A DNA stretch of 48,295 nt from an uncultured Pseudomonadales bacterium (GCA_964361885.1 CAYICL010000003.1:1-48295), one strand, 5' to 3'; positions 1 to 42,786 are shown, counted from the first letter of the stretch. Notes: generated by a model not told the origin, from the letters alone. A program made the numbers and translations.

Positions 1-1002
1 GAAAACGTCCTTTACATCCTCGATCTTTATGACAGCGTTGCCCGGATCGAACAGCGCTTTTTAAGCCCGACCGTGGACACCGAAAAACTGACCACCAACT
101 TTATCTCGCCTTTAGCCGCTGACGGCCAAATTACCATCAACGGTTCTGTTGAAATTCACGGTGACGCCAGTATTTCCGGAACTTTAACTGCCAATGAAAT
201 CAAATCTTCTACCACTGACAGCTTAAAAGAAAAAATCGCTGATATTATTGCCAGTCTGGATCAGCCTAAGGCCACACCGCCAAAGTCAGCCTCAATGTCA
301 GCCACTCCCGAGGTGTTTGCAGATTTCACCTCGGGAGTGAGTTCACCTTCTGCCTACTTGGATATTGACAGTCTTAATGCTGACTCCGGCTTTTTCTCCG
401 AATACTTGGCTGTCTTAGGTTCAGCCGCCATTACCAGCTTAAATGTTACCAATAGTTTAACCATTAATAACCAGTTGTTACTGACTGCCAACTCGCTTTC
501 AGGTCTGGATAATCAACTTTTCCTCCAACCTTCAGGCACCGGCTCGATCAACTTTCTGGCAGGCTTAATGACTTTGTCTGACGCCGGTCTGGTTACCATC
601 ACCGGTAACTTAACTGTCACCGGCACTTTAACCGCTACTTATATCGCTCCTCCATTAGAGCAAGATCTGCAAATTAACATTGCCAGCCAATCGGCTGTGG
701 CAATCTATAATCAAATATCCGGCTCTCAAATAGCTTCAATTGATGCTTCCGGTTCAGCCTCTTTTAACCGATTAAATCTAAAAGCCTCAGGCTCAACCTC
801 GATTCTGGCCGGCGAAAATCACGTGATGATTAACTCCGATGCTCTCACTCAAACTTCCCAAATTATCGTTACCTTTACTTCCGACTACAAACCGGCCTCA
901 AAATACTGGGTGGTTAAAGAACCTGCCAACCAACACTTTACTCTCTTTGTCAACTACCCGGTCAACTCCGACACTTTTCTCGACTGGTTGATTATTAACT
1001 AG
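1..1002 (+). CDS. Secreted/surface repeat protein, 5'-partial (frame 1 is open from the window edge; the listed GTG at 73 is probably internal)
   Basis: Frame 1 has no stop from nt 1. The protein is Thr/Ser/Gly/Asn-rich with repeats such as SGTLTANEI and TGNLTVTGTLTAT, which look beta-helix or fibre-like. It carries an in-frame 37-nt palindromic cassette at 303-339. Confidence 0.5.
   Translation, partial: ENVLYILDLYDSVARIEQRFLSPTVDTEKLTTNFISPLAADGQITINGSVEIHGDASISGTLTANEIKSSTTDSLKEKIADIIASLDQPKATPPKSASMSATPEVFADFTSGVSSPSAYLDIDSLNADSGFFSEYLAVLGSAAITSLNVTNSLTINNQLLLTANSLSGLDNQLFLQPSGTGSINFLAGLMTLSDAGLVTITGNLTVTGTLTATYIAPPLEQDLQINIASQSAVAIYNQISGSQIASIDASGSASFNRLNLKASGSTSILAGENHVMINSDALTQTSQIIVTFTSDYKPASKYWVVKEPANQHFTLFVNYPVNSDTFLDWLIIN
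303..339. repeat. Family-2 palindromic doublet CACTCCCGAGGTG-N11-CACCTCGGGAGTG (37 nt) in the surface-protein gene
   Basis: Read directly. Encodes TPEVFADFTSGV. Confidence 0.9.
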
Positions 1003-4358: not shown

Positions 4359-4907
4359 ATGCCGCAAAGTTATACAAAACTCTTTACTTACTGGTTTAGT
4401 TTAATAATTTACGATTTAACTGTGGAGTTTTGCCAACGTTGGATAAAAAGCTACAAACTTTCCGAACAAATGACCGGCGCCGCTCGCTCCGGAAAACAAA
4501 ATATCGTTGAAGGTTCTGAAGACATGTCAACTTCTTTAAAAACCGCCATTAAACTAACTAATATCGCTAAAGGCTCATTAGAAGAGTTACTCTCTGACTA
4601 CGAGGATTTTTTACGTCAAAGAAATCTGCTAATATGGACTAAAACCGACTCGCGCGTTCTTTTTTGGCGGGCAAAATTCGCCCGTCTCGTAAGAAACTTA
4701 AGTAACTTAAGAACCTTAGGTGGCTTACGAGGGCAGCTAACGCTGCCCAAAAATCCTGAAGAAGCCGCCAACCTACTTCTAACCCTTTGCCATCAAGCTT
4801 CATTTTTACTTAACAAACAAGTACAATCACTTATCAAAAAACACACCCAAGAAGGCGGATTTACTGAAAAACTTTATCATGCCAGAAAAACATATGCGCA
4901 TCATTAA
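4359..4907 (+). CDS. Four-helix-bundle protein (23S rRNA intervening-sequence protein family) with suffix domain
   Basis: AARSGKQNIVEGSE...IAKGSLEELLSDYEDFLRQRNL...PEEAANLLLTLCHQASFLLNKQ...EGGFTEKLYHARK matches my memory of this family. Confidence 0.65.
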   Translation: MPQSYTKLFTYWFSLIIYDLTVEFCQRWIKSYKLSEQMTGAARSGKQNIVEGSEDMSTSLKTAIKLTNIAKGSLEELLSDYEDFLRQRNLLIWTKTDSRVLFWRAKFARLVRNLSNLRTLGGLRGQLTLPKNPEEAANLLLTLCHQASFLLNKQVQSLIKKHTQEGGFTEKLYHARKTYAHH

Positions 4908-5991
4908 AACGACTCAAAAAAATGTCATTAGTGAGACCGTTCAAGTCTTAAAACTTGGCGGTCTGGTCATCTATCCTACCGAAACCTGCTATGGCGCCGG
5001 CGTTGACCCCACCAATCAGCCGGCAGTTAATAAACTTTTAGCCTACAAACATAAGCGCGAAGGCCGGCCGATATCTGTGGCCGTGGCTGATGAACCAATG
5101 GCCAGCAAATACGTTAAATTAAATCCCACGGCTAAAAATTTATATCAAAAATTCCTGCCCGGACCATTGACCGTTGTTTCCGCCGGCCGTCATCAACTCG
5201 CCTCTGGCATCGAGTCAGAACTCGGCACTCTTGGTATCCGGATTCCTGACCACCTGCTGGCTTTGGCAATTGTCAAAAAATTCGGTAAACCAATCACTGC
5301 CACCTCTGCCAATGTTTCTTATAAACCCCGGCCTTACTCGATCAAACAACTCTTAAAAAATACTTCCAAAAAACAGCAAAGCTTAATTGATTTAATTATT
5401 GACGCCGGCCAGTTACCCAAACGGCCGGTGTCCACCATTGTCGATACCACTCTTGACGACCCGCTAATCATCCGCCAAGGCAAAATTACTCTATCACCCC
5501 TATCACACCTCGGGAGTGTGATCAGGGTGATCAGTAAATCGCCGCAGCAAACCATTAAGTTGGCTCAAACCCTTTGTCTTAAATACTGGAAAGACCTGCA
5601 GACCAAACCGATTATTTTTCTTCTCATCGGCGAGTTAGGCACTGGCAAAACCCAGTTTTGCAAAGGCATCGGAAAATTCTTACAAATCAAGGCCAATATC
5701 AATTCCCCCACGTATACTATTGAAAAAGAATACGACTTTAACCGTTATCAAGTTAAAGGCAGGTTTTTGCACTTAGACACCTGGCGTTTACAAAACATCG
5801 AGGAATTTGATCAACTAAACCTTAAAGCCCGCTTCCTGCCTAAAACCGTCATCGCTGTTGAATGGGCTTCAAGAACCTTAAAACCCCTTTTAGATCTGGC
5901 TCGTCAAACCCAGACTAAAGTCATTATGGTTAAACTGCAAACCGTTTCCGGATCTTCTGCATCTCTTCGGCAGATAACCGTCTGCTGCTAG
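4879..5991 (+). CDS. tsaC: Fusion protein: L-threonylcarbamoyladenylate synthase (TsaC/YrdC/Sua5 domain) plus t6A ATPase TsaE
   Basis: N-terminal half has LKLGGLVIYPTETCYGAGVD (YrdC motif). C-terminal half has the P-loop GELGTGKTQFCKGIG, SPTYTIEKEY and HLDTWRL (TsaE motifs). An alternative start ATG at 4894 (MRIIKT) is plausible. Confidence 0.8.
   Translation: MPEKHMRIIKTTQKNVISETVQVLKLGGLVIYPTETCYGAGVDPTNQPAVNKLLAYKHKREGRPISVAVADEPMASKYVKLNPTAKNLYQKFLPGPLTVVSAGRHQLASGIESELGTLGIRIPDHLLALAIVKKFGKPITATSANVSYKPRPYSIKQLLKNTSKKQQSLIDLIIDAGQLPKRPVSTIVDTTLDDPLIIRQGKITLSPLSHLGSVIRVISKSPQQTIKLAQTLCLKYWKDLQTKPIIFLLIGELGTGKTQFCKGIGKFLQIKANINSPTYTIEKEYDFNRYQVKGRFLHLDTWRLQNIEEFDQLNLKARFLPKTVIAVEWASRTLKPLLDLARQTQTKVIMVKLQTVSGSSASLRQITVCC
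5493..5533. repeat. 41-nt imperfect palindrome centred on CACCTCGGGAGTG, forming the TsaC-TsaE inter-domain linker
   Basis: ATCACCCCTATCACAC-CTCGGGAG-TGTGATCAGGGTGATCA. The arms match at 14 of 16 positions. Confidence 0.75.
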
Positions 5992-6352: not shown

Positions 6353-7473
6353 ATGAAATCGCCATTAATTTAGCCATCGACACTTCCTGCGACGAAACCT
6401 GCGCCAGTGTTTCTTTTGGCCGCCGGATTTTATCCAATGTCATCTCTTCCCAAATCAACATTCACCAAAAATATGGCGGCGTTGTCCCGCACCTGGCCAA
6501 ACGGGCCCATCAGGAAAAAATCGAGCCTGTCGTTAAAGAGGCAATAAAAAGGTCTGTCCTTAAAGGACTCAAGTTGCGTCAGCAACCTGAAAAGAATTCA
6601 AAAAGGACAGACCTTTCTGGAATAAGCGCCATCGCCGTCACCGTCGGTCCGGGCTTGGCTCCGGCCCTTGAAGTTGGTATTAACTTTGCCAAAAATCTTG
6701 CCCGCCGGCTCAAACTCCCGTTAATTGCTGTCAATCATATGGAAGGCCACCTCTTATCCTGCCTTGCCTTGCCTCACACTCCCGGAGTGAAATCTTCAAA
6801 CACTCCGGGAGTGAAATTCCCCGCTCTCGGCCTGCTCGTCTCCGGTGGTCACACCCAGTTGGTTTTAGTCAAATCCATTGGTCTATACCAACTTTTGGGT
6901 GAAACTTTGGATGATGCAGCCGGTGAAGCTTTGGATAAGCTTAGTAAAATGTTAAAACTCGGCTATCCCGGCGGCCCGATTATCGAACAACTAGCTAAAC
7001 AATCCGCCGGCTGGCGGACCAGCACCATCCCCTTACCCGTCCCTTTGCAACATTCCCAAGACTTAAACTTCTCTTTTTCCGGTTTAAAAACCGCGGCTCT
7101 TTATACCATTCAAAAAGTTTACAAAGGACGGACCTTTGTAAAAAAACAATTCACTTACGACTTATGCGCTGCTTTCCAAACTGCCATTGCTAAAAGCTTA
7201 ACTGTCAAACTCCAAAAAGCGATTGAGCAATACCAACCAAAAAGCATTTTGTTAGGCGGCGGGGTGTTTTCCAATTTATATTTCCGTCGCCAAATCCGCT
7301 CGGCTGTTAAACCATTTCAACTACCTCTTTATCTTCCCTATTCCAAAAAACTTTTTACTGACAATGCTGCCATGATTGCCGTTCCCGCTTACTTTAAATT
7401 TCTTAAAAAAGACTTTGTCAAAAACATTAAGACCCTGGACCGCCAACCAAACCTTAACTTTGATACAATATAG
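6353..7473 (+). CDS. tsaD: tRNA N6-adenosine threonylcarbamoyltransferase TsaD (Kae1/Gcp family), with apparent 1-nt frame problem at codon 2-3
   Basis: The conserved N-terminus LAIDTSCDETCASV...GGVVPHLAKRAH...AVTVGPGL lies in frame 1 upstream of the listed TTG at 6574. HMEGH metal site and SGGHTQL are present. The only nearby ATG (6353) is one base out of frame. Confidence 0.8.
6548..6616. repeat. 69-nt palindromic cassette inside tsaD (14-bp perfect inverted repeat AAAGGTCTGTCCTT / AAGGACAGACCTTT), REP-core variant
   Basis: Read directly. Inner hairpin GTTGC-GTCA-GCAAC at 6573-6586. Encodes KRSVLKGLKLRQQPEKNSKRTDL. Confidence 0.85.
6777..6813. repeat. Family-2 doublet variant CACTCCCGGAGTG-N11-CACTCCGGGAGTG in tsaD
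   Basis: Read directly. Encodes TPGVKSSNTPGV. The spacer is the reverse complement, 10 of 11 nt, of the 303-339 spacer. Confidence 0.85.
7117..7143. repeat. REP copy (GTTTACAAAGGACGGACCTTTGTAAA) inside tsaD, in frame (VYKGRTFVK)
   Basis: Direct reading. 10-bp stem TTTACAAAGG/CCTTTGTAAA around ACGGA. Confidence 0.9.
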
Positions 7474-14189: not shown

Positions 14190-15968
14190 CTACATCCGCT
14201 CCGGCGTGGCAATCCCCAGTAAACCCAAACCTTTTTTAATTATCTCGGCCGTTGCCTGAGTCAGCCACAGCCTGAACTCTTTTACCTCTTTTTCCGCCTT
14301 TAAAATCCGGTGCCGGTTGTAAAACCCATTATACTTTTGAGCCAAATCATATAAGAAATTGGCTACCAGATTTGGCGCCAACTCCGCCGCCGCCTGGCTG
14401 ACCACCTCTTCATACCGATACAACGTCCGCAGTAATAGGTCTTCCTCTTTTGAATAAGGTCCGACCTTGAGCGCCTTTGGCGCGTCCCGACGAATGTCGG
14501 GACTCAAGGTCGGACCTTTACTCAGCACGCTCTTGGCTCTGGCGTATGTATACTGCAGATACGGCCCTGAGTTACCCTCTAAACTAATCGATTCGTCAAA
14601 ATCAAAAGCCATGTCTTTGGTCCTGCCCACTTTTAAAATACTGTATTTAACTGCTCCCACTCCGATTTTTTCCGCTACTTCGTCAATGGAGGCTGTTTCC
14701 ACTTCGCTCTCACCTGACCGTTTCATAATTTCTTTAGTTTTTCCCACTGCTTGATCCAGCAAATCATCAATATATACCACCATACCTGTTCTTGAACTCA
14801 TCCTGCCCTTACCCTTAAGACTCATCCAGCCATAACTCACATGCTGACACTCTTTGATCTTCACTATCCCTAGCTGTTCGCAGACCGCAAACATCTGTTT
14901 TAAAGCTAATGACTGCTCCGGTCCGATCACCCAAAAAAGCTTATCCGGTTTAAAGGTCTCCTTTTTTAATTTGGTCAAAGCTAAATCCTGAGTAATATAC
15001 AAAGCCGTACCGTCTGCTTTAATCACCACCGTGTCCGGAATGCCGTACTTGGTTAAATCCGTGACGATTGCCCCTTCTTTTCCTTTTCTAAACACGCCTT
15101 TCTTCAAACCTAGCTCCACCAAGTCCTTCCCTTGCTGATAATGCTCATGCTCATGCCAAACCCTGTCCCATTTATTTCCCAGTCTCTTCAGCGTCAACTC
15201 CTGCCCCTGGTAGGAATATTCCAGTACCTTTGCCCATAAAGCCCGGTTCTTCTTGTCTCCGGCTTCCCAATCTATCACCATTTGCCTGACCGCCTTTTCT
15301 GTATCAGCTGTTTTACAATCCTCACTGGCCTTAACATATAACTCGTCTACAAATCTATCCGGCCTCATCTTGGCATTTTCCGGAGTCTGCCATTCATCCT
15401 GATGGTCATACCAATAATTAAGATCAATCATTTGCTTCTTTTCTTTGTGGCCAAACCTTAAATATCCCCACATTAATTTGGCAATGGCAATTCCCCGGTT
15501 ATTATCAACACAATCTCTGACCACCTGGCAACCTAAGGCTTCGAAAATATTCGCCAAGGCCATACCGATAATATTGTTGGTTAAATGTCCTAAATGCATG
15601 GCTTTATTAGGATTAGGTGACGTGTGTTCCACTAAATATTTTTTCCCCTGATAAGGTTTCTTCTCATCACCAATTAGCACTTGATTAATTTGATTGATAA
15701 GAACGTCACTTTTGATTGATATATTAATAAAACCTGCTCCGGCAACACTGATTTTTGAAGCTATTTTTTTCATGCTATCTTCGGCTTTTAACTTAGCTGC
15801 AATTGCTTCAGCTGTTTCTCGGGGTGACTGGCTTTTTAACGCCACATTGCAGCTATAATCCCCAAACGCCATGTTCTCCGGATGCTCCACAATAAACTTG
15901 GCTTTTTCTAATTTGAGTTCTTTTAAAATCTTCTCTATATTCTTATAAATCTGATGTGATAATTCCAT
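14190..15968 (-). CDS. argS: Arginine--tRNA ligase
   Basis: HTSPNPNKAMHLGHL (HIGH region), MSSRTG (KMSKS-like) and a C-terminal anticodon-binding domain ending ...ERM. Carries a 63-nt in-frame palindromic cassette at 14456-14518. Confidence 0.9.
   Translation of the reverse strand: MELSHQIYKNIEKILKELKLEKAKFIVEHPENMAFGDYSCNVALKSQSPRETAEAIAAKLKAEDSMKKIASKISVAGAGFINISIKSDVLINQINQVLIGDEKKPYQGKKYLVEHTSPNPNKAMHLGHLTNNIIGMALANIFEALGCQVVRDCVDNNRGIAIAKLMWGYLRFGHKEKKQMIDLNYWYDHQDEWQTPENAKMRPDRFVDELYVKASEDCKTADTEKAVRQMVIDWEAGDKKNRALWAKVLEYSYQGQELTLKRLGNKWDRVWHEHEHYQQGKDLVELGLKKGVFRKGKEGAIVTDLTKYGIPDTVVIKADGTALYITQDLALTKLKKETFKPDKLFWVIGPEQSLALKQMFAVCEQLGIVKIKECQHVSYGWMSLKGKGRMSSRTGMVVYIDDLLDQAVGKTKEIMKRSGESEVETASIDEVAEKIGVGAVKYSILKVGRTKDMAFDFDESISLEGNSGPYLQYTYARAKSVLSKGPTLSPDIRRDAPKALKVGPYSKEEDLLLRTLYRYEEVVSQAAAELAPNLVANFLYDLAQKYNGFYNRHRILKAEKEVKEFRLWLTQATAEIIKKGLGLLGIATPERM
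14456..14518. repeat. 63-nt nested palindromic cassette inside argS (15-bp perfect inverted repeat AAGGTCCGACCTTGA / TCAAGGTCGGACCTT enclosing two hairpins)
   Basis: Read directly. Inner hairpins GCGCC-TTT-GGCGC (14471-14483) and GTCCCGAC-GAAT-GTCGGGAC (14484-14503). Confidence 0.9.
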
Positions 15969-23605: not shown

Positions 23606-23998
23606 ATGATTCAAATTAAAGTCGGCGGTAAACTGATTGCTTTAATTATCAAAGCTAAAACTCAACCCAAGATAAATCAGTTTATAACTGATCCTCACAA
23701 TCCTCTCCAGCTGGGCTTTCTCCGATTTTCTAAAAATCGCCAAGTAAAGCCCCACCAACACCGCGCTCTTGATAAAACCACTCACCAAAATCAGGAATTT
23801 ATTTATGTTGTCTCCGGCCAAATTCTGGCTGAATTTTTTTACAAAGGACGGACCTTTGTAAAACATCTGCTTAATCCCGGAGATTGCTTATTGCAACTAC
23901 AAGGCGGCCATGGGTTTACCATGCTTAAACCCACCAAGCTCATTACCATTAAGCAAGGTCCTTACTCCAGCCGCCAGCGCGAAAAAATCGAAATATAG
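23606..23998 (+). CDS. Cupin-fold protein (WbuC/sugar-modifying cupin-like)
   Basis: I place the start at ATG 23606 (MIQIKVGG) rather than the listed 23426, which would run through the divergent gene's start. HQH...QEFIYVVSG...GDCLL...GGHGF is a cupin pattern. REP copy in frame at 23838-23863. Confidence 0.5.
   Translation: MIQIKVGGKLIALIIKAKTQPKINQFITDPHNPLQLGFLRFSKNRQVKPHQHRALDKTTHQNQEFIYVVSGQILAEFFYKGRTFVKHLLNPGDCLLQLQGGHGFTMLKPTKLITIKQGPYSSRQREKIEI
23838..23863. repeat. REP copy inside the cupin gene, in frame (FYKGRTFVK)
   Basis: TTTACAAAGGACGGACCTTTGTAAAA read directly. Confidence 0.9.
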
Positions 23999-34683: not shown

Positions 34684-35546
34684 TGAAGTTCTCCGTTATC
34701 ATCCCTTGTAAAACTAAGGCCGACCTCTGCCCCGAACTGATTCCGGCTTTAAAATCTCAAACTTTCAAAGACTTTGAAACTATCATTGTTATTGACCGTC
34801 TTTGCGCAGGCTTGCCGGCTGCAAAACGCGATTGGGGGGCAAACCGCAGTCATGGCCAAATTTTGGCTTTTATTGACTCTGATGCCTACCCTGACCAACA
34901 CTGGCTGGAAAACGCCAATGCTCACTTTAAATCTCCTGTTACCGCGGCTGTTTGCGGTCCTGGCCTAACTCCTCCCACTGACTCTCAAACCCAACAGCTT
35001 TCCGGTTTAGTTTGGTCGACCTGGCTCGGTGCCGGCGGCGCCGGTACTTTTAGAAACCTAAAAGCTAAACCCCGTCTGGTTGATGACTATCCCAGTTTTA
35101 ACCTTCTGGTTTTAAAAAAAGACTTTAACCAAGTTAACGGTTTTAACACCCGTTACTGGCCCGGCGAAGACACCAAGCTCTGCCATGACTTAGTCTATAT
35201 CTTAAAAAAACAAATTCTTTATCATCCCCAAATCATGGTTTATCACCACCGCCGGCCGGTTTTTATCTCTCATCTTAAACAAATCTCCGCTTACGGTCTT
35301 CACCGCGGGTTTTTTGTTAAAATCCTACCCAAAACTTCTTTAAAACCCGGCTATTTTATTCCCCTGCTTTTTCTCTTTGGTTTAATCATCTTGCCTTCTT
35401 TAACTCTTCCTCCTTACCTGCTTCTCCTTATCATTACCGGCCTGATTCACCGCTCTTTACTTTTAATCCCGGCTATCTTTCTGACTCACCTGACTTACGC
35501 CGTGATGTTTTTAAAAGGCTTACTCACTCCCTACCTCAAAAACTAA
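34683..35546 (+). CDS. Family 2 glycosyltransferase with C-terminal TM segments
   Basis: MKFSVIIPCKTKADLCPELIPALKSQTF...FIDSDAYP...GEDTKLC. Its stop codon abuts the left REP copy. Confidence 0.7.
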   Translation: MKFSVIIPCKTKADLCPELIPALKSQTFKDFETIIVIDRLCAGLPAAKRDWGANRSHGQILAFIDSDAYPDQHWLENANAHFKSPVTAAVCGPGLTPPTDSQTQQLSGLVWSTWLGAGGAGTFRNLKAKPRLVDDYPSFNLLVLKKDFNQVNGFNTRYWPGEDTKLCHDLVYILKKQILYHPQIMVYHHRRPVFISHLKQISAYGLHRGFFVKILPKTSLKPGYFIPLLFLFGLIILPSLTLPPYLLLLIITGLIHRSLLLIPAIFLTHLTYAVMFLKGLLTPYLKN

Positions 35547-36291
35547 GTTTACAAAGGACGGACCCTTGTAAACTATGTATAATACAAATATGCCTGCCAA
35601 AAATATTATCAAAACCTATATTCAAAACGGTTATTATCACCTTTATAATCGCGGAGTCAACAAACGAAACATCTTTAAAAATCAGCAAGATTACGGTGTT
35701 TTTCTTGGCTACTTGAAACAATATCTCTCCCCAAATGATAAAAATCCTTGTTTAAGAAACATCACTGTTAAAAACAAAGTTTATAAAATTCTGACTCCCC
35801 CATGTAAAAACTATCATCATGATATCAAACTCCTGGCTTACTGTTTAATGCCTAATCATTTTCATTTATTAATTAAACAATTTTCCGAAAGAGGCATTGC
35901 CTCACTGATGAAATCTCTCGGCACCCGCTACACCATGTACTTTAACAAACGTTACCAACGCACCGGTCCTTTATTCCAAAGCCGTTATAAGGCCGTTTTA
36001 ATTGATAACGAAAACCAGCTGCTTCATCTCTCCCGCTATATTCATCTTAATCCCCTACCCAAAAACCCAACTCAACCCTCTAGTTATCCTAATTATCTTG
36101 GTCTAAACCATGCCACTTGGATTCAGCCCCAAGAAATCCTTACTTTCTTTAAAACCGCCCGCAAAACCAATCTGAATGATATTAGTTCATATCAAAGTTT
36201 TATTGAAGACTATTCTGAACCGCCTAAAACATTTTTAGAAAACCTTACCCTTGATTAGATTGTTTACAAAGGACGGACCCTTGTAAACTAT
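35547..36291 (+). mobile_element. REP/RAYT unit: IS200-like Y1 (HUH) transposase gene bracketed by two identical 27-nt (30-nt with flank) palindromic REP copies
   Basis: GTTTACAAAGGACGGACCCTTGTAAACTAT occurs at 35547-35576 and 36262-36291 in direct orientation. The unit fills the gap between two convergent gene ends exactly. Confidence 0.8.
35575..36258 (+). CDS. REP-associated tyrosine transposase (RAYT; IS200/IS605 TnpA-like Y1 HUH enzyme)
   Basis: YHLYNRGVNKRNIF, HUH motif in LMPNHFHLLIK, FQSRYKAVLI and the catalytic-Tyr region LSRYIHLNP. The start may be ATG 35590 (MPAKN), which lies 6 nt after a TATAAT. Confidence 0.8.
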   Translation: MYNTNMPAKNIIKTYIQNGYYHLYNRGVNKRNIFKNQQDYGVFLGYLKQYLSPNDKNPCLRNITVKNKVYKILTPPCKNYHHDIKLLAYCLMPNHFHLLIKQFSERGIASLMKSLGTRYTMYFNKRYQRTGPLFQSRYKAVLIDNENQLLHLSRYIHLNPLPKNPTQPSSYPNYLGLNHATWIQPQEILTFFKTARKTNLNDISSYQSFIEDYSEPPKTFLENLTLD

Positions 36292-37856
36292 AACTCCTGC
36301 TCGACCCGCTTCACCGCCTCGATTAACTTTTGATCCTCGGGGACAATTCCTAATGCCTTTTTAAACTCCGCCAATGCCGTTTGTTTATCACCTTTTTGAT
36401 AATAAATTGATCCTAACTGCTGATGTGACTGCCATAAACTCGGCTTAAACTTTAAAGCTTTCGTGTACCACTCTATTGCTTCGTCTAATTTTCCTTCCTG
36501 AAAATAAGTATTGGCTAAATTATGCATGGCATCCGCATAATTCTGGTTCAAACTAATTGCCTGCATAAAATGCCACTCTGCCTGCTTTAAATCCCCTCTT
36601 CTGCCATACAAATCCCCCAGATTGTTATGGTTTTGAGGGCTGGTTGGCGATGTCCGTTCTGCCGACAGCCATAAAACATCCTGATTTTGCCAATTACTAT
36701 TCCTCACCAAAGTCCTGATTATTAACAAACATACCAATAAAGTAATTACCGCCCAGCCAGCTTCTGTCTGCTTTGGTCTTTGGCTGAAACTAACCAACCC
36801 CCAAGCTGTCAAAACAAAAACGCCGATCGCCCCAAAATACACATACCTCTCTGCCACAATCCAGGCCACACCCAAAGGGAGTAATGTCGGGCTTAAACCG
36901 ATCACCAGCCAGGCTAAGAAAAACCCGGCTATGCCAAACTTGGCCTTACCTTTAAACCCCAGCCATAACAGCCCAGCGCTGACCAGAAAATAGATTATTG
37001 TTATTCCGGCCATCAGCCAGAATATTTCTTGAGTAATATTTAACTCCGAGTGGTACAAAGTCAACTTATCCGGCCAAAAAATTAATGAAAGATAATTAGC
37101 GATGGCTACCGGAATCTGAATCAATGGGTTAATCTTGGATCCGCCGCCGCCGGTGAACTCGGCTTCTAAATAACTTAATCTCGCTCCCACTTTTAAAAGA
37201 TTAATCGCCAGCCATAAGCCGCTTAAGCCAATGTATGGAACCAGATCTCCCCACCGTCCCCGTTTCTTCTCAATTACCAACCGGTAAACGAGTAAAATTC
37301 CCGGCAGTATTACCGCTTTTTCCGAATACTGTAAGGCTCCTAAGAAAAGTAAAATAGATGTTCCGTACTTCCACCAGCTGTCTTTGGCTTTAATGTAGAA
37401 AATTAAGCTCCAGATTAACAAAGCCGTATACCAGCTGTAACCTCCGCCCGATATCCAGGTAACTGACTCAATCATGATCGGATGCACTGCCACCAATACC
37501 GCTGCCACAGTCCCCACTGTCCGGTTAATTAGCCACCCCCCTAAAATCATTACTCCCACCGCCGTCATCAAATGCACCAAGATATTCACCAGTCTGAATG
37601 GCCAGGGTACAATCCCAAACCCATTGGCAATAATAAAATATATCAGTCTGTTTAAAACAATCGTCGGGTTTTTCACTACCCAGTCAAACTTAACAATCTC
37701 CGGATTATTGACAATCCCGTAAATGTCATCGGATACAAACGCATTGTCCAAAGTCCCTAAGTAGGCTATCCCTACTAAACCTGCCAATAAGCCTAATCTC
37801 CATTTATTTTGCTTAATCCAATCCATATTTTTTATTTTACACCATTCAGCCACCAA
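36288..37856 (-). CDS. Polytopic GT-C-like membrane protein with C-terminal TPR repeats
   Basis: About 11 TM segments, then TPR repeats (NNLGDLYGRRGDLKQAEWHFMQAISLNQNYADAMHNLANTYFQEGKLDEAIEWYTKALKFKP). A start at 37826 (MDWIKQ) would remove the overlap with the upstream gene. Confidence 0.6.
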   Translation of the reverse strand: MVAEWCKIKNMDWIKQNKWRLGLLAGLVGIAYLGTLDNAFVSDDIYGIVNNPEIVKFDWVVKNPTIVLNRLIYFIIANGFGIVPWPFRLVNILVHLMTAVGVMILGGWLINRTVGTVAAVLVAVHPIMIESVTWISGGGYSWYTALLIWSLIFYIKAKDSWWKYGTSILLFLGALQYSEKAVILPGILLVYRLVIEKKRGRWGDLVPYIGLSGLWLAINLLKVGARLSYLEAEFTGGGGSKINPLIQIPVAIANYLSLIFWPDKLTLYHSELNITQEIFWLMAGITIIYFLVSAGLLWLGFKGKAKFGIAGFFLAWLVIGLSPTLLPLGVAWIVAERYVYFGAIGVFVLTAWGLVSFSQRPKQTEAGWAVITLLVCLLIIRTLVRNSNWQNQDVLWLSAERTSPTSPQNHNNLGDLYGRRGDLKQAEWHFMQAISLNQNYADAMHNLANTYFQEGKLDEAIEWYTKALKFKPSLWQSHQQLGSIYYQKGDKQTALAEFKKALGIVPEDQKLIEAVKRVEQEL

Positions 37857-38668
37857 CTTTTACCGTCACTTTCTATTTGAATCGTTCCTTTTTCATCTGT
37901 CCTTAACACTTCTGCGCCAATTGCTTCCAGTCTCTTTAAAACCTCCGGTGTCGGATGTCCAAATTGATTCTTCCCCACCGAAATCACTGCCGCTTTTGGT
38001 CTGATTGTCTTTAAAAAACTTTCGCCGGAGCTGTATTTGCTGCCATGATGCCCGACCTTTAAAATTTCTACCGGTTCCCACTTGTTCCTCATTAAACTCT
38101 CTTCTTTTTCTCCGCTGTCACTGGTTAACAACCATTTAAAATTATTAAACCTGCCTTTTAGCACGGTGGCGATCTTATTAGTGTCTTTGATAAAACTGGC
38201 TGCTCCTAGAACTTGAGTTTCCGGCCAAATTGCTTCCAGCTCCACCGGCCCAAACCTCAATTTGTCTCCGCTGGTCAACTCTTTTGTCTTAATGCCCTGA
38301 CTTGCCACCAACTCCTTCAACTGCCAATATTCCGGAGTGTCATTAACTATATTGCTGGCCAAAAACTTTTCCACCCTGTATCTTCGAAATACCTCAATCA
38401 ACCCGGTCATATGATCGGCCTGCGGATGCGTCAACACCACTACCTCCAGCTTTCTGTCCCAAAAAGCCAGGTTTTTACCTAAACAATACAAGACTGAATT
38501 GTCCGGCCCGCCATCGATTAAAACTTGATAAGTTTTATAACTAACAATAATTGCATCTCCTTGCCCGACATTGCAAAATGTTAATCTTAAATTATTGTCC
38601 GGCCACTGGCCCATTAAAAAAATTACTAAACCGATAGTCAAACTCAAAACCAAATTAATTTTTTTCAT
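37832..38668 (-). CDS. comEC: ComEC C-terminal metallo-beta-lactamase domain protein, encoded as a separate ORF
   Basis: NVGQGDAII...VLTHPQADHMTGL...KVGHHGSKYS. ATGA overlap with the upstream ComEC channel ORF. Confidence 0.75.
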   Translation of the reverse strand: MKKINLVLSLTIGLVIFLMGQWPDNNLRLTFCNVGQGDAIIVSYKTYQVLIDGGPDNSVLYCLGKNLAFWDRKLEVVVLTHPQADHMTGLIEVFRRYRVEKFLASNIVNDTPEYWQLKELVASQGIKTKELTSGDKLRFGPVELEAIWPETQVLGAASFIKDTNKIATVLKGRFNNFKWLLTSDSGEKEESLMRNKWEPVEILKVGHHGSKYSSGESFLKTIRPKAAVISVGKNQFGHPTPEVLKRLEAIGAEVLRTDEKGTIQIESDGKSWWLNGVK

Positions 38669-39798
38669 AATCTGGAAAACTCTTCAATCACTCTGACCAT
38701 CACTGTCAAAGGCACATAGGTAAGCCAGCCAACCCACTGGCCCAAACCAGCACTAACCAATCCTACCCCCGCCAAAATCGCTCCCAATCCCATAATTATT
38801 GGCACCATCCACAGTATCAAACTATTAACTAATATGCTAAACCAACTCACCTGGCCAAAATTAATAAAAATAACCGGCCAAACCATCAACTGGGCTGCTG
38901 TTGTTTGACTAATATCTTTCCCAATCAACCACACCCTGCCAAACACTTTCTCCAGCCTCGGCGCTACTATTAATAGTCCTAAAGTTGCCAAAAACGACAG
39001 CTGAAAACCAATATCAAAAATAAACATCGGTTCTACTATTAACATCACTGCTACCGCTGCTGTTAAAAGCCTGACTCCGTCCGCTTTCCTGCCAAGCATT
39101 TGACCCAAATATCCTAAGCTGCCCATAATGGCTGCCCGGACTATGGCCGGTTCGGCTCCGGCCATGACCGTATAACCAATCACAAATAAAATTCCCAAGC
39201 TAATAGCGGTTCTTCGTTTAAATATCCCGGCTAAATAGGCCACCGTTGTCCCAATCACCACTGTTACGTTGTAGCCTGAAGCCACCACAATATGCAAAGT
39301 GCCGGTTCTTTGCAAAGCTTGCCAAAACTTGCTTGGTAGGTTTCTTTTGACTCCCAACACTATTCCCGCCAGTAAGCTGGCCTCCGGTTCAGGCAAACTA
39401 GTGTTATAAACCAACTCAATCCGTTGCTTTAACCTTAAAACTGCCTCTTTCCAATCAAAGCCTATAAACTGCCACCTATCGGCCTCCATTAAACTAATGT
39501 CCGGATACATCAAACTAAATTGACTATACCATCTGTTTACTACTTTCCTCTGGAGAGTGCCAGAAATAGTCAATTTTTGACCATATTCATACTCCGGATA
39601 CTGTTTGGCTATGACCCGAATCCGACCCATATTCAGTCTTTGTGACCTACCCTGTAGTAAAGGTTCTGAAGATACTCTTCCCACCAGCTTAATTTCCCTA
39701 CCTTCTAATTGTCCAAGTTTTGCCTCAGCCTGAAATGAATTAAAAAATCTAGCAACAAATATTATTAACCATATCAAGAGCACTATGACCGGCTTCAT
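38665..39798 (-). CDS. comEC: ComEC/Rec2 DNA-uptake channel (OB-like N-domain plus Competence membrane domain)
   Basis: LLAGIVLGVKRNLPSKFWQALQRTGTLHIVVASGYNV...AGAEPAIVRAAIMG, with multiple TM helices. Confidence 0.75.
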   Translation of the reverse strand: MKPVIVLLIWLIIFVARFFNSFQAEAKLGQLEGREIKLVGRVSSEPLLQGRSQRLNMGRIRVIAKQYPEYEYGQKLTISGTLQRKVVNRWYSQFSLMYPDISLMEADRWQFIGFDWKEAVLRLKQRIELVYNTSLPEPEASLLAGIVLGVKRNLPSKFWQALQRTGTLHIVVASGYNVTVVIGTTVAYLAGIFKRRTAISLGILFVIGYTVMAGAEPAIVRAAIMGSLGYLGQMLGRKADGVRLLTAAVAVMLIVEPMFIFDIGFQLSFLATLGLLIVAPRLEKVFGRVWLIGKDISQTTAAQLMVWPVIFINFGQVSWFSILVNSLILWMVPIIMGLGAILAGVGLVSAGLGQWVGWLTYVPLTVMVRVIEEFSRL

Positions 39799-39814: not shown

Positions 39815-40390
39815 TTAATAAACCGCTACCTTTTCCTTAATCGCTTCATACACATTACTTTTCACCGCTTTTTTTGTCAGCAACTCCTCCACTGACCCAT
39901 ACGGCCGGTTTGAAATAATCTTTTCTGCCGTGGCCGGCCCCACTCCCCAAAGCGTATCCAGCTCGGCGCTTGACGCGGTATTGATGTTTACAAAGGACGG
40001 ACCTTTGTAAACATTTTGAGAAGGTCCGTCCTTATTGGATTCTTCTTGACTCGGAATATATACCTTCTGGCCGTCAACAATTTTGGCAGCCAAATTTAAG
40101 TTTTTATTCAACCATTCCCTGTCTGCTTTTTCTCCTAAGCCGCCGGCGACGACTAAGGCATCATTCATTCTGGCTCCAAGGCTTAACTTATACAATCCGG
40201 GCTTCATCACTGCTCCGGCTACATCCACATACACATACACCTCTTTTTCCTGCTCTACGATCTCTACCCCTCTATCAGTCGCTTTATTGCTGATCAATAT
40301 TGCTGAAAACACTCCGACAATCAATAACAGTATTCCCGCCAATCCCACGGTCAACCAATATGGTTTGGCTTTCAATTCCTTTATCCTCAT
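39815..40390 (-). CDS. comEA: ComEA DNA receptor (SLBB domain plus helix-hairpin-helix)
   Basis: VAGAVMKPGLYKLSLGARMNDALVVAGG (SLBB) and INTASSAELDTLWGVGPATAEKIISNRPYGSVEEL (HhH). The REP doublet sits in the inter-domain linker. Confidence 0.8.
   Translation of the reverse strand: MRIKELKAKPYWLTVGLAGILLLIVGVFSAILISNKATDRGVEIVEQEKEVYVYVDVAGAVMKPGLYKLSLGARMNDALVVAGGLGEKADREWLNKNLNLAAKIVDGQKVYIPSQEESNKDGPSQNVYKGPSFVNINTASSAELDTLWGVGPATAEKIISNRPYGSVEELLTKKAVKSNVYEAIKEKVAVY
39986..40033. repeat. REP doublet (full REP 39986-40012 plus inverted core AAGGTCCGTCCTT at 40021-40033) inside comEA
   Basis: Read directly. Encodes NKDGPSQNVYKGPSFVN on the minus strand. Confidence 0.9.
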
Positions 40391-42786
40391 ACCACCAGAT
40401 TCACCAGTTTTCCCGGCACAAACACCTCTTTGACTACTTTTTTCCCTGCCAAATAAACCTTCACCTTTTCGCTTAACTTAGCCATTGCCAGGACTTTTTC
40501 CTTATCACCGGCTTGTTCCCGATCCAACACCAGCCTGTCTCTAAGCTTAGCATTCACTTGAATTACCACTGTTACCGTCTCGCCCTTGGCAAACTCTTTA
40601 TCATATTCCGGCCAAGCTTGCTGATGCACCGAAAACTTACCTCCAAGCTTCTGCCACAACTCCTCGCTTATATACGGTGCCATCGGCGCCAATAGCAAAA
40701 TCAAAGTCTTAACTGCCTCTGAAAACACCTCCGAGGTGTGAACTTCTTTCACCTCGGAGGTGAATAATCTCTCCAACTCATTAACATACTCCATTAAAGC
40801 CGCAATCCCCACATTAAACCTAAACTCTTTCATTGCCTGAGTGACTCGCTTAACTGTCTGGTGTTGCAACCGACGCAAGCCTTCAAGGTCCGTCCTTGTA
40901 GGCTTATTGTTTACAAAGGACGGACCTTTGTAAACCAACTTCCACACCCGGTTTAGAAACCGCCTCATTCCTTTCATGCCTGTGTCTTGAAAATCACCGC
41001 CCTGATCATACGGCCCGATAAACATTAGATACATCCGCAAAGCATCCACTCCGTACTTATCTATATACTCATCCGGATTGACAATATTGCCTTTACTCTT
41101 ACTCATCTTGGCTCCGTCTTTAATAATCAAGCCGTGCCCATACAAAAACGGAAACGGCTCATCTCCCAAACTCTTAGGAATATAGCCAAAATCCTGCAAA
41201 GCCATCCAGATAAATCGGGAATACATCAGGTGCAGCACAGCATGTTCTGCTCCGCCGATATAAGCGTCAACCGGCAGCCACTTCTTGGTAACTTCCGGAT
41301 CAAAAGGCAAATTAGACACTCCCGAGGTGGCAGATTTTTTCACCTCGGGAGTGTGATTGACCGACGGATAGCGCAGGAAATACCACGAACTGTCCAAAAA
41401 TGTGTCGCTCACATCTGTTTCCCGTTTCGCTTTGCCTTTGCATGAAGGGCATTTGGTATATAACCAATCATCTCCGGCCTTCTGAAGCGGCGACTTGCCG
41501 TCTCCAGTCGGTTTAAAATCTTTGACGTACGGCAGTTTCACCGGCAGATTCTTTTCTTTTTCTGCTTGCCATTTACATTTCTCGCAATAAATCATCGGAA
41601 TCGGCGGCCCCCAGTACCGCTGCCGGCTGATACACCAATCCCTTAACCGGTAATTTATCTTTTTCCTCACTCCGCCTAATTTTGCCAACTGTTTAAAAAC
41701 TTCATCTTGATTTTTCAAAACATCTACTACCAATAACTTATGTTTCTTGGCAAAAGCCATATCTCTCTCGTCATGAGCCGGCACCCCCATCACCGCTCCG
41801 GTACCATAATCTTTCAGCACAAAATCGGCTATCCAAATCGGCATTAACTTGCCTGTTAATGGATGAGTCACTTTGTAACCAGTATCCACTCCCGTTTTAC
41901 TTTTCTCTCCTTCTTTTCTCTGTTGCTCAGTTTTATCTAAAGCTTTTTTTACATAATTCATCACTGCTTTATTTGTGGTCAAACTGCTCACCAAAGGATG
42001 TTCCGGGGCTAAACATAAAAAAGTGGCTCCAAAAATCGTGTCCAGTCTGGTAGTAAAGGTGGTAACTTTTTTATCCATGCCTTTAACTTGCCAGTCAACT
42101 TCGACTCCCTTGCTCCGGCCGATCCAGTTTCTCTGAACCGTCTTGATCTTCTCCGGCCAATCAATCTTGTCAATATTGTCTAAAAGTCTTTGAGCATACT
42201 TAGTTATCTTAAAAAACCACTGGAAAGTTTCTTTTTTTTCCGTCACGGTTTTACACCGCTCGCATAATCCGGCTTCTACCTGTTCATCGGCCAGCACCGT
42301 TTTGCATGACGGACACCAGTTAACCAAAGATTTCTTCCTATAAGCCAATCCTTTCTCAAACATCTTAATAAACAACCACTGGGTCCATTTATAGTATTCC
42401 GGATCATAAGTTTCTAACCGGTTCTCCCAGGAAAACCGGTTGCCGATCCGTGATAATTGTTCGTAAAAATGTTTCTCGCTAATCTTGGCTTGATCTGCCG
42501 GATGCTTAGCGATCTGAATCGCATAGTTTTCCGAGTGAATCCCAAACCCGTCCAACCCGATCGGCTCAAACACCTGATAGCCATTCATCGCCTTGTACCT
42601 GCCGTAAAAGTCTGCCCCGGTAAAAGCATACATATTGCCCACATGTAAACCCTCTGCCGACGGATACGGAAACATCATCAGGTTGTAAAATTTCTTCTTG
42701 GGGTTTTTCAAATCCACTTGATATATCTTGGCTTTCTGCCACTTTTTTTCCCACTTGGTCTCAATAGTTTTGGAATTATAATCCAT
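40387..42786 (-). CDS. leuS: Leucine--tRNA ligase
   Basis: PYPSAEGLHVGNMYAF (HIGH), CxxC zinc motifs, KMSKSKGN and RFLNRVWKLV. Three in-frame palindromic cassettes. Confidence 0.9.
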   Translation of the reverse strand: MDYNSKTIETKWEKKWQKAKIYQVDLKNPKKKFYNLMMFPYPSAEGLHVGNMYAFTGADFYGRYKAMNGYQVFEPIGLDGFGIHSENYAIQIAKHPADQAKISEKHFYEQLSRIGNRFSWENRLETYDPEYYKWTQWLFIKMFEKGLAYRKKSLVNWCPSCKTVLADEQVEAGLCERCKTVTEKKETFQWFFKITKYAQRLLDNIDKIDWPEKIKTVQRNWIGRSKGVEVDWQVKGMDKKVTTFTTRLDTIFGATFLCLAPEHPLVSSLTTNKAVMNYVKKALDKTEQQRKEGEKSKTGVDTGYKVTHPLTGKLMPIWIADFVLKDYGTGAVMGVPAHDERDMAFAKKHKLLVVDVLKNQDEVFKQLAKLGGVRKKINYRLRDWCISRQRYWGPPIPMIYCEKCKWQAEKEKNLPVKLPYVKDFKPTGDGKSPLQKAGDDWLYTKCPSCKGKAKRETDVSDTFLDSSWYFLRYPSVNHTPEVKKSATSGVSNLPFDPEVTKKWLPVDAYIGGAEHAVLHLMYSRFIWMALQDFGYIPKSLGDEPFPFLYGHGLIIKDGAKMSKSKGNIVNPDEYIDKYGVDALRMYLMFIGPYDQGGDFQDTGMKGMRRFLNRVWKLVYKGPSFVNNKPTRTDLEGLRRLQHQTVKRVTQAMKEFRFNVGIAALMEYVNELERLFTSEVKEVHTSEVFSEAVKTLILLLAPMAPYISEELWQKLGGKFSVHQQAWPEYDKEFAKGETVTVVIQVNAKLRDRLVLDREQAGDKEKVLAMAKLSEKVKVYLAGKKVVKEVFVPGKLVNLVV
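40726..40762. repeat. Family-2 doublet CACCTCCGAGGTG-N11-CACCTCGGAGGTG in leuS
   Basis: Read directly. Encodes TSEVKEVHTSEV on the minus strand. Confidence 0.85.
40885..40935. repeat. REP doublet (inverted core AAGGTCCGTCCTT at 40885-40897 plus full REP 40909-40935) inside leuS
   Basis: Read directly. Encodes VYKGPSFVNNKPTRTDL on the minus strand. Confidence 0.9.
41317..41353. repeat. Family-2 doublet CACTCCCGAGGTG-N11-CACCTCGGGAGTG in leuS
   Basis: Read directly. The arms are identical to the 303-339 copy. Encodes TPEVKKSATSGV on the minus strand. Confidence 0.9.

Follow-up and report, generated by a model that had tools for sequence, protein, structure and literature searches.

A probable REPIN-like family of 37-nt palindromic doublets, most copies of which lie inside genes of Patescibacteria

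The doublets of the window and their relatives

The stretch of DNA analyzed here (48,295 nt, positions 1-48295; hereafter the window) contains four inverted doublets of a short palindrome that lie in frame inside genes, and this raises the question of what kind of element they are and how they came to be there. A preliminary description had placed the doublets, each of 13 + 11 + 13 nt, at positions 303, 6777, 40726, and 41317, and all four positions were exact when the window was reread (Table 1). The peptides of the four copies were also recovered as it had written them, in one common relative frame. The spacers were related as proposed, with GCAGATTT common to the 303 and 41317 copies and the tsaD spacer matching the reverse-complemented 303 spacer at 10 of its 11 positions, and the single hairpin at 5493-5533 proved to be real, with one CAC arm enclosed in a longer outer palindrome. 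Against dinucleotide-preserving shuffles of the window, the exact doublet pattern was matched twice (0.00 expected) and a degenerate 13-mer gave 13 strand-hits (0.26 expected); thus, chance does not account for the doublets. Nine CAC arms were found in the 48-kb window, and the density was approximately 1 per 10 kb. As single-stranded DNA, each doublet folded into a stem of 13 or 14 bp with an 11-nt loop, at folding energies between -15.7 and -16.7 kcal/mol (z-scores, -6.5 to -8.8). An Rfam search of the window matched two tRNAs, and no family covered the doublets. A role as terminator was considered and dropped because the terminator scan gave only a weak signal, for a single arm and on the strand antisense to leuS.

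Table 1. Coordinates of the doublets and of other features in the window
Feature	Position	Strand	Sequence	Peptide or context	Folding energy or match
CAC-family doublet in partial ORF 1-1002	303-339 (arms 303-315 and 327-339, spacer 316-326)	+	CACTCCCGAGGTG-TTTGCAGATTT-CACCTCGGGAGTG (arm-spacer-arm)	In frame; TPEVFADFTSGV	DNA hairpin, -15.7 kcal/mol, z = -7.5
CAC-family doublet in tsaD	6777-6813	+	CACTCCCGGAGTG-AAATCTTCAAA-CACTCCGGGAGTG	TPGVKSSNTPGV; loop after TsaD HMEGH metal-binding motif	Hairpin, -16.1 kcal/mol
CAC-family doublet in leuS	40726-40762	-	CACCTCCGAGGTG-TGAACTTCTTT-CACCTCGGAGGTG	TSEVKEVHTSEV; loop after YVNELE(R) motif	Hairpin, -16.0 kcal/mol
CAC-family doublet in leuS	41317-41353	-	CACTCCCGAGGTG-GCAGATTTTTT-CACCTCGGGAGTG	TPEVKKSATSGV; loop after RYPSV motif	Hairpin, -16.7 kcal/mol
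leuS gene hosting doublets 40726 and 41317	40387-42786	-			
Single CAC arm	5506-5518, nested in outer palindrome 5493-5533	+	TATCACAC...GTGTGATCA		-11.8 kcal/mol
RAYT-like Y1 (IS200-like) transposase gene	35575-36258	+			Pfam PF01797, E = 2.6e-13
Other palindrome family at the RAYT gene	35546-35574 and 36262-36289		GTTTACAAAGGACGGACCCTTGTAAACT	Both sides of window RAYT	
First palindrome family, sites	6548-6616, 7117-7143, 14456-14518, 17223, 23837-23863, 24810, 35546-35574, 36262-36289, 39984-40033, 40885-40935				
ORF with fused Sua5/TsaC (aa 23-201) and TsaE (aa 220-337)	4879-5991				
ComEC, Competence domain ORF	38665-39798	-			
ComEC, metallo-beta-lactamase domain ORF	37832-38668	-			
comEA	39815-40390				

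The family extends well beyond the window. In a genome scan using one genome per species, the same architecture was found at no fewer than 117 loci in related genomes, so the further copies anticipated by the preliminary description do exist. These loci belonged mostly to Microgenomates MAGs (Curtiss-, Levy-, Beckwith-, Woese-, Shapiro-, Davies-, and Gottesmanbacteria), and the window organism is itself a relative of Beckwithbacteria, with its closest non-self LeuRS 70% identical. Several carrier MAGs with a G+C content of 39-51% are labeled Gammaproteobacteria or Pseudomonadales; they fall among loci L006-L074 (CAZDQA01, CAYMGH01, CAZUWK01, CAYGFS01, and others). Because L014 and L039 show ~82% nucleotide identity to Curtiss- or Levybacteria loci, the labels "uncultured Gammaproteobacteria/Pseudomonadales" of at least these two are probably wrong. 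The few matches in Streptomyces, Plantactinospora, Microvirga, and Bacteroides had noncomplementary arms and are probably due to chance. Among 2.9 million viral contigs there was a single match, a near-absence that fits a chromosomal, vertically kept element. One locus, L114, was tried as a transposon, since two copies with inverted flanks lie 6 kb apart, and was rejected, as they stand 88 nt from both ends of a 6,227-nt contig. The ends of this contig (1-125 and 6103-6227) are mutual reverse complements through the CAC doublet, and the symmetry is probably an assembly artifact caused by the palindrome.

The window and the genome loci together yielded 129 nonredundant copies, in which the anatomy of the element was examined. 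Each arm is a near-palindrome, X-C-Y', and its partner arm is Y-G-X', where the X and Y half-sites are CACTCC, CACCTC, or CACCCC; CACACC was also found elsewhere, and we assign the CAC doublets to a large REP family whose core is CACC...GGTG. The two arms were perfectly complementary in 118 copies despite variation at five positions of each arm, for which the chance is 1/32 per copy, and the complementarity was perfect at synonymous positions too. The arms were self-palindromic in 103/129 copies, and the center bases were ordered C then G in 111/129. The spacer loosely follows AAA-nnnn-C-nn-A or the reverse complement of this consensus, and a few spacers, such as AAATCTGCAGA, AAAGAAGTTCA, and AAGGGCTCCCA, were found in more than one genome. 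The flank logo showed a near-absence of G at position -1 and of C at position +1, with no other signal. Neither the logo nor the RAYT-proximal copies had a GTAG or CGTC tag at the hairpin foot, and the stem showed no signal of extension beyond the arms of 3 nt or more.

The flanks also bear on whether the doublet might be a MITE with 13-bp terminal inverted repeats that is moved by a DDE transposase, its adjacency to RAYT genes being secondary. Such an element would be small, dispersed, and bounded by inverted repeats, as the doublets are. However, target-site duplications of 3 nt or more were not found among the copies: direct repeats of k = 3 were observed 3 times versus 2.3 in shuffled pairings, and those of k = 4 were observed once versus 0.6. 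The absence of such duplications is the expectation for Y1 transposases. Each supposed terminal repeat is, moreover, itself palindromic, and single arms occur; in ~0.9 Mb of loci no DDE transposase was bounded by the arms, which instead flank Y1 genes. We therefore consider a MITE very improbable.

Coding context and insertion status

Most copies lie in predicted coding sequence. Inside ORFs of at least 100 aa lay 105 of the 129 copies (~80%), with 24 outside such ORFs, which bears out the earlier statement that a second palindrome family colonizes coding regions. Frame 1 accounted for 70 copies, read as T[PS][EG]V-x4-T[PS][EG]V, and frame 0 for 32 copies, read as H[LPS]R[GS]E..H[LPS]G[GS], i.e., HLRGEKFSHLGG; only 3 copies were in frame 2, and the doublets were used in both orientations. 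The dominant combination, frame 1 with the AAA-first spacer in the sense orientation, comprised 56 of 95 ORF copies. The T orientation in frame 2 was stop-free in 107/113 elements and was used only twice. Because this combination is open yet rarely used, a filter beyond stop-codon avoidance must operate, and this filter is most simply explained as peptide tolerance. The use of several frames and both orientations, together with the copies outside ORFs, indicates that the unit is DNA: the doublet is clearly not a peptide motif but a DNA unit, translated in those copies that fall inside a gene.

The strong preference for one frame and orientation (56/95) could also be read as selection on the peptide TPEV-x4-TSGV, as a linker or modification site, with the palindromy being a by-product of codon choice. 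This reading does not agree with the 32 copies in which the same DNA is read as HLRGEKFSHLGG, with the copies outside ORFs and beside RAYT genes, or with arms that remain perfectly complementary even at synonymous positions. In addition, orthologues without the DNA palindrome also lacked the peptide; a peptide kept without its palindrome, which would have spoken against the preliminary description, was not seen. A selected peptide is thus scarcely credible. The data on frame and location, the complementarity of the arms, and the lack of duplications contradict both the peptide and the MITE readings by direct tests.

We then compared the genes that carry doublets with their orthologues. In LeuRS, the motif was present in either frame in 10/120 orthologues, at several different loop positions, and the closest LeuRS relatives of each carrier were without it. 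The two sites in the window leuS are hypervariable loops, one after RYPS[VI] and one after YVNGLEK (YVNELER in the window), and the doublet at 40726-40762 is missing at that site in the closest LeuRS relatives. In the RYPSV loop, the orthologue P0026 has a copy in another frame, HSRSERSSHSGS. In different lineages, these same loops hold CAC doublets of different subtypes, and elsewhere they hold peptides from other palindrome families (KVRPC...RTDL, RSARSGQ, and VYKGPSFV). LeuRS loops with a doublet differed from orthologues by a net 9-19 residues. In TsaD, the doublet forms an 11-residue insertion relative to PDB 8IEY, just after the HMEGH motif. A clean comparison of filled and empty sites was available at CxxC|GW, where L198 and L199 carry 57 extra nt (11+37+9) and L200 and L201 carry none. 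The LeuRS and TsaD doublets are therefore sporadic, lineage-specific additions in variable loops.

As a side observation, the LeuRS orthologues P0002-P0045 ranged in length from 725 to 1045 aa and had recurrent peptides (KVRPCH, PTRTDL, RSA[RH]SGQ, GLPTSGQ, SPRR...) in the loops after RYPS[VI], RVWKL/RVEKL, and YVNGLEK. These peptides resemble the translation products of several further families of palindromic repeats.

The size of the insertions was not uniform. At empty or variant sites, the net length differences were 12, 27-33, 30, and 57 nt, with others of approximately 9-12 codons. This inconsistency arises from the host loops, which are themselves hypervariable and in many cases contain leftovers of other palindrome families. 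The earlier statement that each copy contributes 12 codons thus holds for the span of the element, since 37 nt covers 12 codons plus one base, but not for the net gain over orthologues, which is not constant. As 37 nt is not a multiple of three, the unit alone cannot keep the reading frame, a point that counts against the REPIN reading set out below. At some sites, indels of -1 and +7 in the flanks are required as well, so that simple cut- or copy-and-paste of a fixed unit is at most a candidate mechanism.

Orthologous sites that have kept an element showed how its parts change with time. In an Ogt-like gene (L001/L014), the element was identical at 37/37 positions, and its surroundings were ~87% identical. 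In a RecF-like gene (L004/L039), the arms were identical at 26/26 positions and the spacers were unrelated or inverted; the element was read in different frames there, as permitted by flanking indels of -1 and +7. At one site (L041/L116/L030), the arms differed only by two mutually compensating substitutions (arm 1, T to C; arm 2, A to G), and at another (L064/L111/L053), CACCTC had given way to CACCCC in all four half-sites in concert. At both of the latter sites, spacers and flanks had diverged freely. Thus, the lasting complementarity of the arms appears to reflect selection, gene conversion from other copies, or reinsertion.

RAYT genes bordered by CAC palindromes

The window contains one RAYT gene, whose protein had REP_Tyr_transpos as its sole NCBIfam match. 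The palindromes on its two sides belong to the other family, GTTTACAAAGGACGGACCCTTGTAAAC, and no CAC-flanked RAYT gene is present in the window, which counts against the REPIN reading; the window RAYT is treated here as context and, at most, as a candidate enzyme for the CAC family. The preliminary description had set the CAC doublets apart from the REP of this RAYT. That separation stands insofar as a different family flanks the window gene, but the CAC family is not unrelated to RAYTs, because CAC 13-mers flank RAYT genes of the same clade elsewhere. Accordingly, we take the CAC family to be the REP/REPIN that belongs to another RAYT lineage.

Homologues of the window RAYT protein were found in eight of the genome loci that had been selected for CAC doublets. 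In L073 (Shapirobacteria), the RAYT gene lies between CAC doublets; the L057 gene lies between single CAC arms in inverted orientation; and the L101 gene is followed by a hairpin, TATCACACTCCCGGTGTGTGATA, that resembles the window hairpin at 5493-5533. A metagenome scan with a RAYT alignment then provided 80 loci, ~220 kb in total, out of at least 564 relatives. CAC arms were present in 10/80 of these loci, and 22/22 arms adjoined the ends of the RAYT ORF. Arms stood on both sides of the gene in L123, L129, L138, L139, L146, and L181, and those of L139 were CAC doublets on both sides. Nearly all other RAYTs of the clade were flanked by short palindromes, many of which were near-variants of the CACC...GGTG type. 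In both genomes compared, JAQVIV01 (L016, L073) and CAZQEC01 (L057), the half-site subtype at the RAYT gene was that of the dispersed doublets.

The CAC-flanked RAYTs formed no single tight clade, with a mean identity of 44% within the group versus 39% to others, and were interspersed with RAYTs having near-variant palindromes. This interspersion in sequence space suggests that enzyme and repeat have co-diverged. The conserved motifs of the RAYTs include the HUH motif PNHFHL and the catalytic tyrosine in LSRYIHLNP. Their sole NCBIfam match was NF047646, REP-associated tyrosine transposase, at 34-50 bits versus an equivalog cutoff of 80. A single-sequence PDB search with the L073 RAYT gave no match, and a profile of 25 RAYT sequences matched E. 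coli TnpA-REP best (4ER8, E = 2.3e-5), ahead of ISDra2 TnpA.

A further feature was seen upstream of some of these genes. In L123, L125, L129, L130, and L146, a conserved TTGACACCTCGGTA-like motif occupies the interval between the upstream REP and the RAYT gene, ~35-45 nt before the start codon, and consists of a -35-like TTGACA plus half a CAC arm. It could be a putative promoter that overlaps a RAYT binding half-site, which would allow autoregulation.

The position of the arms at RAYT genes and their behavior at orthologous sites both bear on a further explanation, namely, that the hairpin is not mobile but a structural signal selected by the host, and that the RAYT is a domesticated partner or coincidentally adjacent. 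Candidates for such a signal are a nucleoid or repair protein site, a ComEA/ComEC DNA-uptake signal, and an mRNA structure. At orthologous sites, the arms are indeed conserved beyond their flanks and undergo compensatory changes; viral contigs are almost free of the element; the ComEA and ComEC genes adjoin leuS in the window; and RAYT/REPIN systems have been argued to behave as host-beneficial, vertically inherited genes (PMC5581495). However, a 37-nt palindrome cannot be created de novo by point mutation, lineage-specific gains at different loop positions of one protein need a copying mechanism, and tight flanking of RAYT genes on both sides is the signature of REP/RAYT systems. As for uptake, the density of ~1 per 10 kb is far below that of known DNA uptake sequences (DUS/USS), which occur about once per kb and arise by point mutation, not as insertions; the CAC copies are indels relative to orthologues. 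A nonmobile host signal is thus unlikely.

Proposed mechanism and relation to known repeats

We consider it likely, at a probability of approximately 0.75, that the doublets are a REPIN-like family of a Patescibacteria RAYT clade, that they are mobilized or maintained by the RAYT, and that they persist mainly as tolerated in-frame loop insertions. The repeat and its hairpin, its dispersal and insertion status, its position at RAYT ends, the lack of target-site duplications, and the conservation of the arms are all observed. In the proposed mechanism, two inverted 13-nt REP-type palindromes, 11 nt apart, would fold on single-stranded DNA into a 13-bp hairpin, which the RAYT may recognize. As has been suggested for REPINs, the RAYT would act in trans to copy or maintain the elements. 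In gene-dense genomes of ~1 Mb, copies would last mainly where they are in frame, stop-free, and located in surface loops, and the outcome would be tolerated T[PS][EG]V-K-x3-T[PS][EG]V or H[LPS]R[GS]E...H[LPS]G[GS] peptides. To our knowledge, RAYT-driven mobility of REPINs has been directly shown in no organism.

A more specific and doubtful proposal is that a Microgenomates RAYT-REPIN system has been domesticated inside coding sequence. In such a case, the arms would be selected over the long term at orthologous codons through compensatory or concerted half-site changes, the spacer would drift or flip, nearby indels would reset the frame, and the elements, more than tolerated parasites, would serve as maintained nucleic-acid signals or as generators of surface-loop variation in essential genes.

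REP/REPIN elements and RAYTs are already well known from E. coli (REP/BIME and TnpA-REP) and Pseudomonas fluorescens (REPINs) (Bertels & Rainey 2011, PMC3116915; Bertels 2017, PMC5581495). The CAC family resembles them in having palindromic units that occur singly or as inverted doublets forming a long hairpin, in its many dispersed copies, and in the same sequence at both ends of a single Y1/HUH transposase gene. Both are also chromosomal, without target-site duplications, near-absent from viral contigs, and long conserved in their arms. In contrast to classical REPs and REPINs, the CAC family has arms of just 13 nt in a doublet of 37 nt and lacks an evident GTAG or CGTC tag, ~80% of the copies are inside ORFs whereas the classical ones are predominantly extragenic, the host belongs to Patescibacteria (Microgenomates), and the RAYT scores below the NCBIfam equivalog cutoff. 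The short arm, the lack of an evident tag, and the mostly intragenic position, which is the opposite of classical REPs, count against the REPIN reading.

Intragenic REPs have also been described. Monomers and dimers of GTAG/CGTC REPs occur inside genes in Opitutus terrae, Thauera, and Rickettsia conorii (RPE-4, RPE-6) (Di Nocera et al. 2013, PMC3733652). Like the CAC doublets, they are inserted in frame in genes for known proteins, among them replication and repair genes, add short peptides, and leave the gene intact; there, however, only a minority is intragenic and the tag is GTAG or CGTC. The CAC copies are intragenic as a rule, have no tag that could be seen, and add a segment of only 12 residues. 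The RPE-1 palindromic elements, reportedly described in Rickettsia by Ogata et al. in 2000 and mentioned in PMC3733652, are similar in being palindromic selfish DNA that lies in frame in essential genes of a reduced genome and encodes surface-exposed segments. They are 100-150 bp long, have a fixed frame, and have no associated transposase, whereas the CAC element is 37 nt, uses two frames, and is linked to RAYT; size and description set the two apart. Our literature searches found no prior description of such elements in CPR/Patescibacteria, and most of the REP work known to us concerns Proteobacteria. The REP/REPIN type itself is therefore known, and what is new is the CAC family, whose mostly in-gene habit is unusual.

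On the preferred REPIN reading, the range of REP/REPIN-RAYT systems now reaches Patescibacteria, where, with near-zero intergenic space, repeats would persist as short in-frame loop peptides in essential enzymes. The affected proteins include LeuRS, TsaD, and RecF-like, topoisomerase-like, and Ogt-like proteins, and the repeats would account for many odd lineage-specific insertions and much length variation in CPR proteins. Annotators and structure predictors should be aware that peptides of the kind TPGVKxxxTPGV and HLRGExxSHLGG derive from the repeat. The conservation of the arms with compensatory change also offers a natural data set on whether REPINs are parasites or maintained partners.

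Several other features of the window were recorded. The first palindrome family, GTTTACAAAGG-ACGGA-CCTTTGTAAAC, which also forms doublets (AAGGTCCGTCCTT...AAGGACGGACCTT), has the same X-C-Y'/Y-G-X' architecture; it flanks the window RAYT and is also found in frame within tsaD, argS, comEA, and leuS, where it encodes peptides such as VYKGPSFV and K(V/D)xP...RTDL. The palindrome at 5493-5533 encodes the linker between the Sua5/TsaC and TsaE parts of the fused ORF, and a once-intergenic repeat may have helped to join the two genes. The TsaD frame is open upstream to ~6306, and the N terminus (..INLAIDTSCDET..) is encoded at ~6370-6400; no in-frame ATG, GTG, or TTG precedes 6574, which suggests a noncanonical start (ATT or ATA) or a sequence error. 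The GC skew is strongly negative and one-directional over the whole window, at -0.20 to -0.32, and matches the chromosome-wide G/C strand disparity known from UBA1400 lineages (Beckwith- and Collierbacteria) (PMC7143001). Finally, ComEC appears to be split into two overlapping minus-strand ORFs that adjoin comEA and leuS, and the same gene order was found in L200 and L201.
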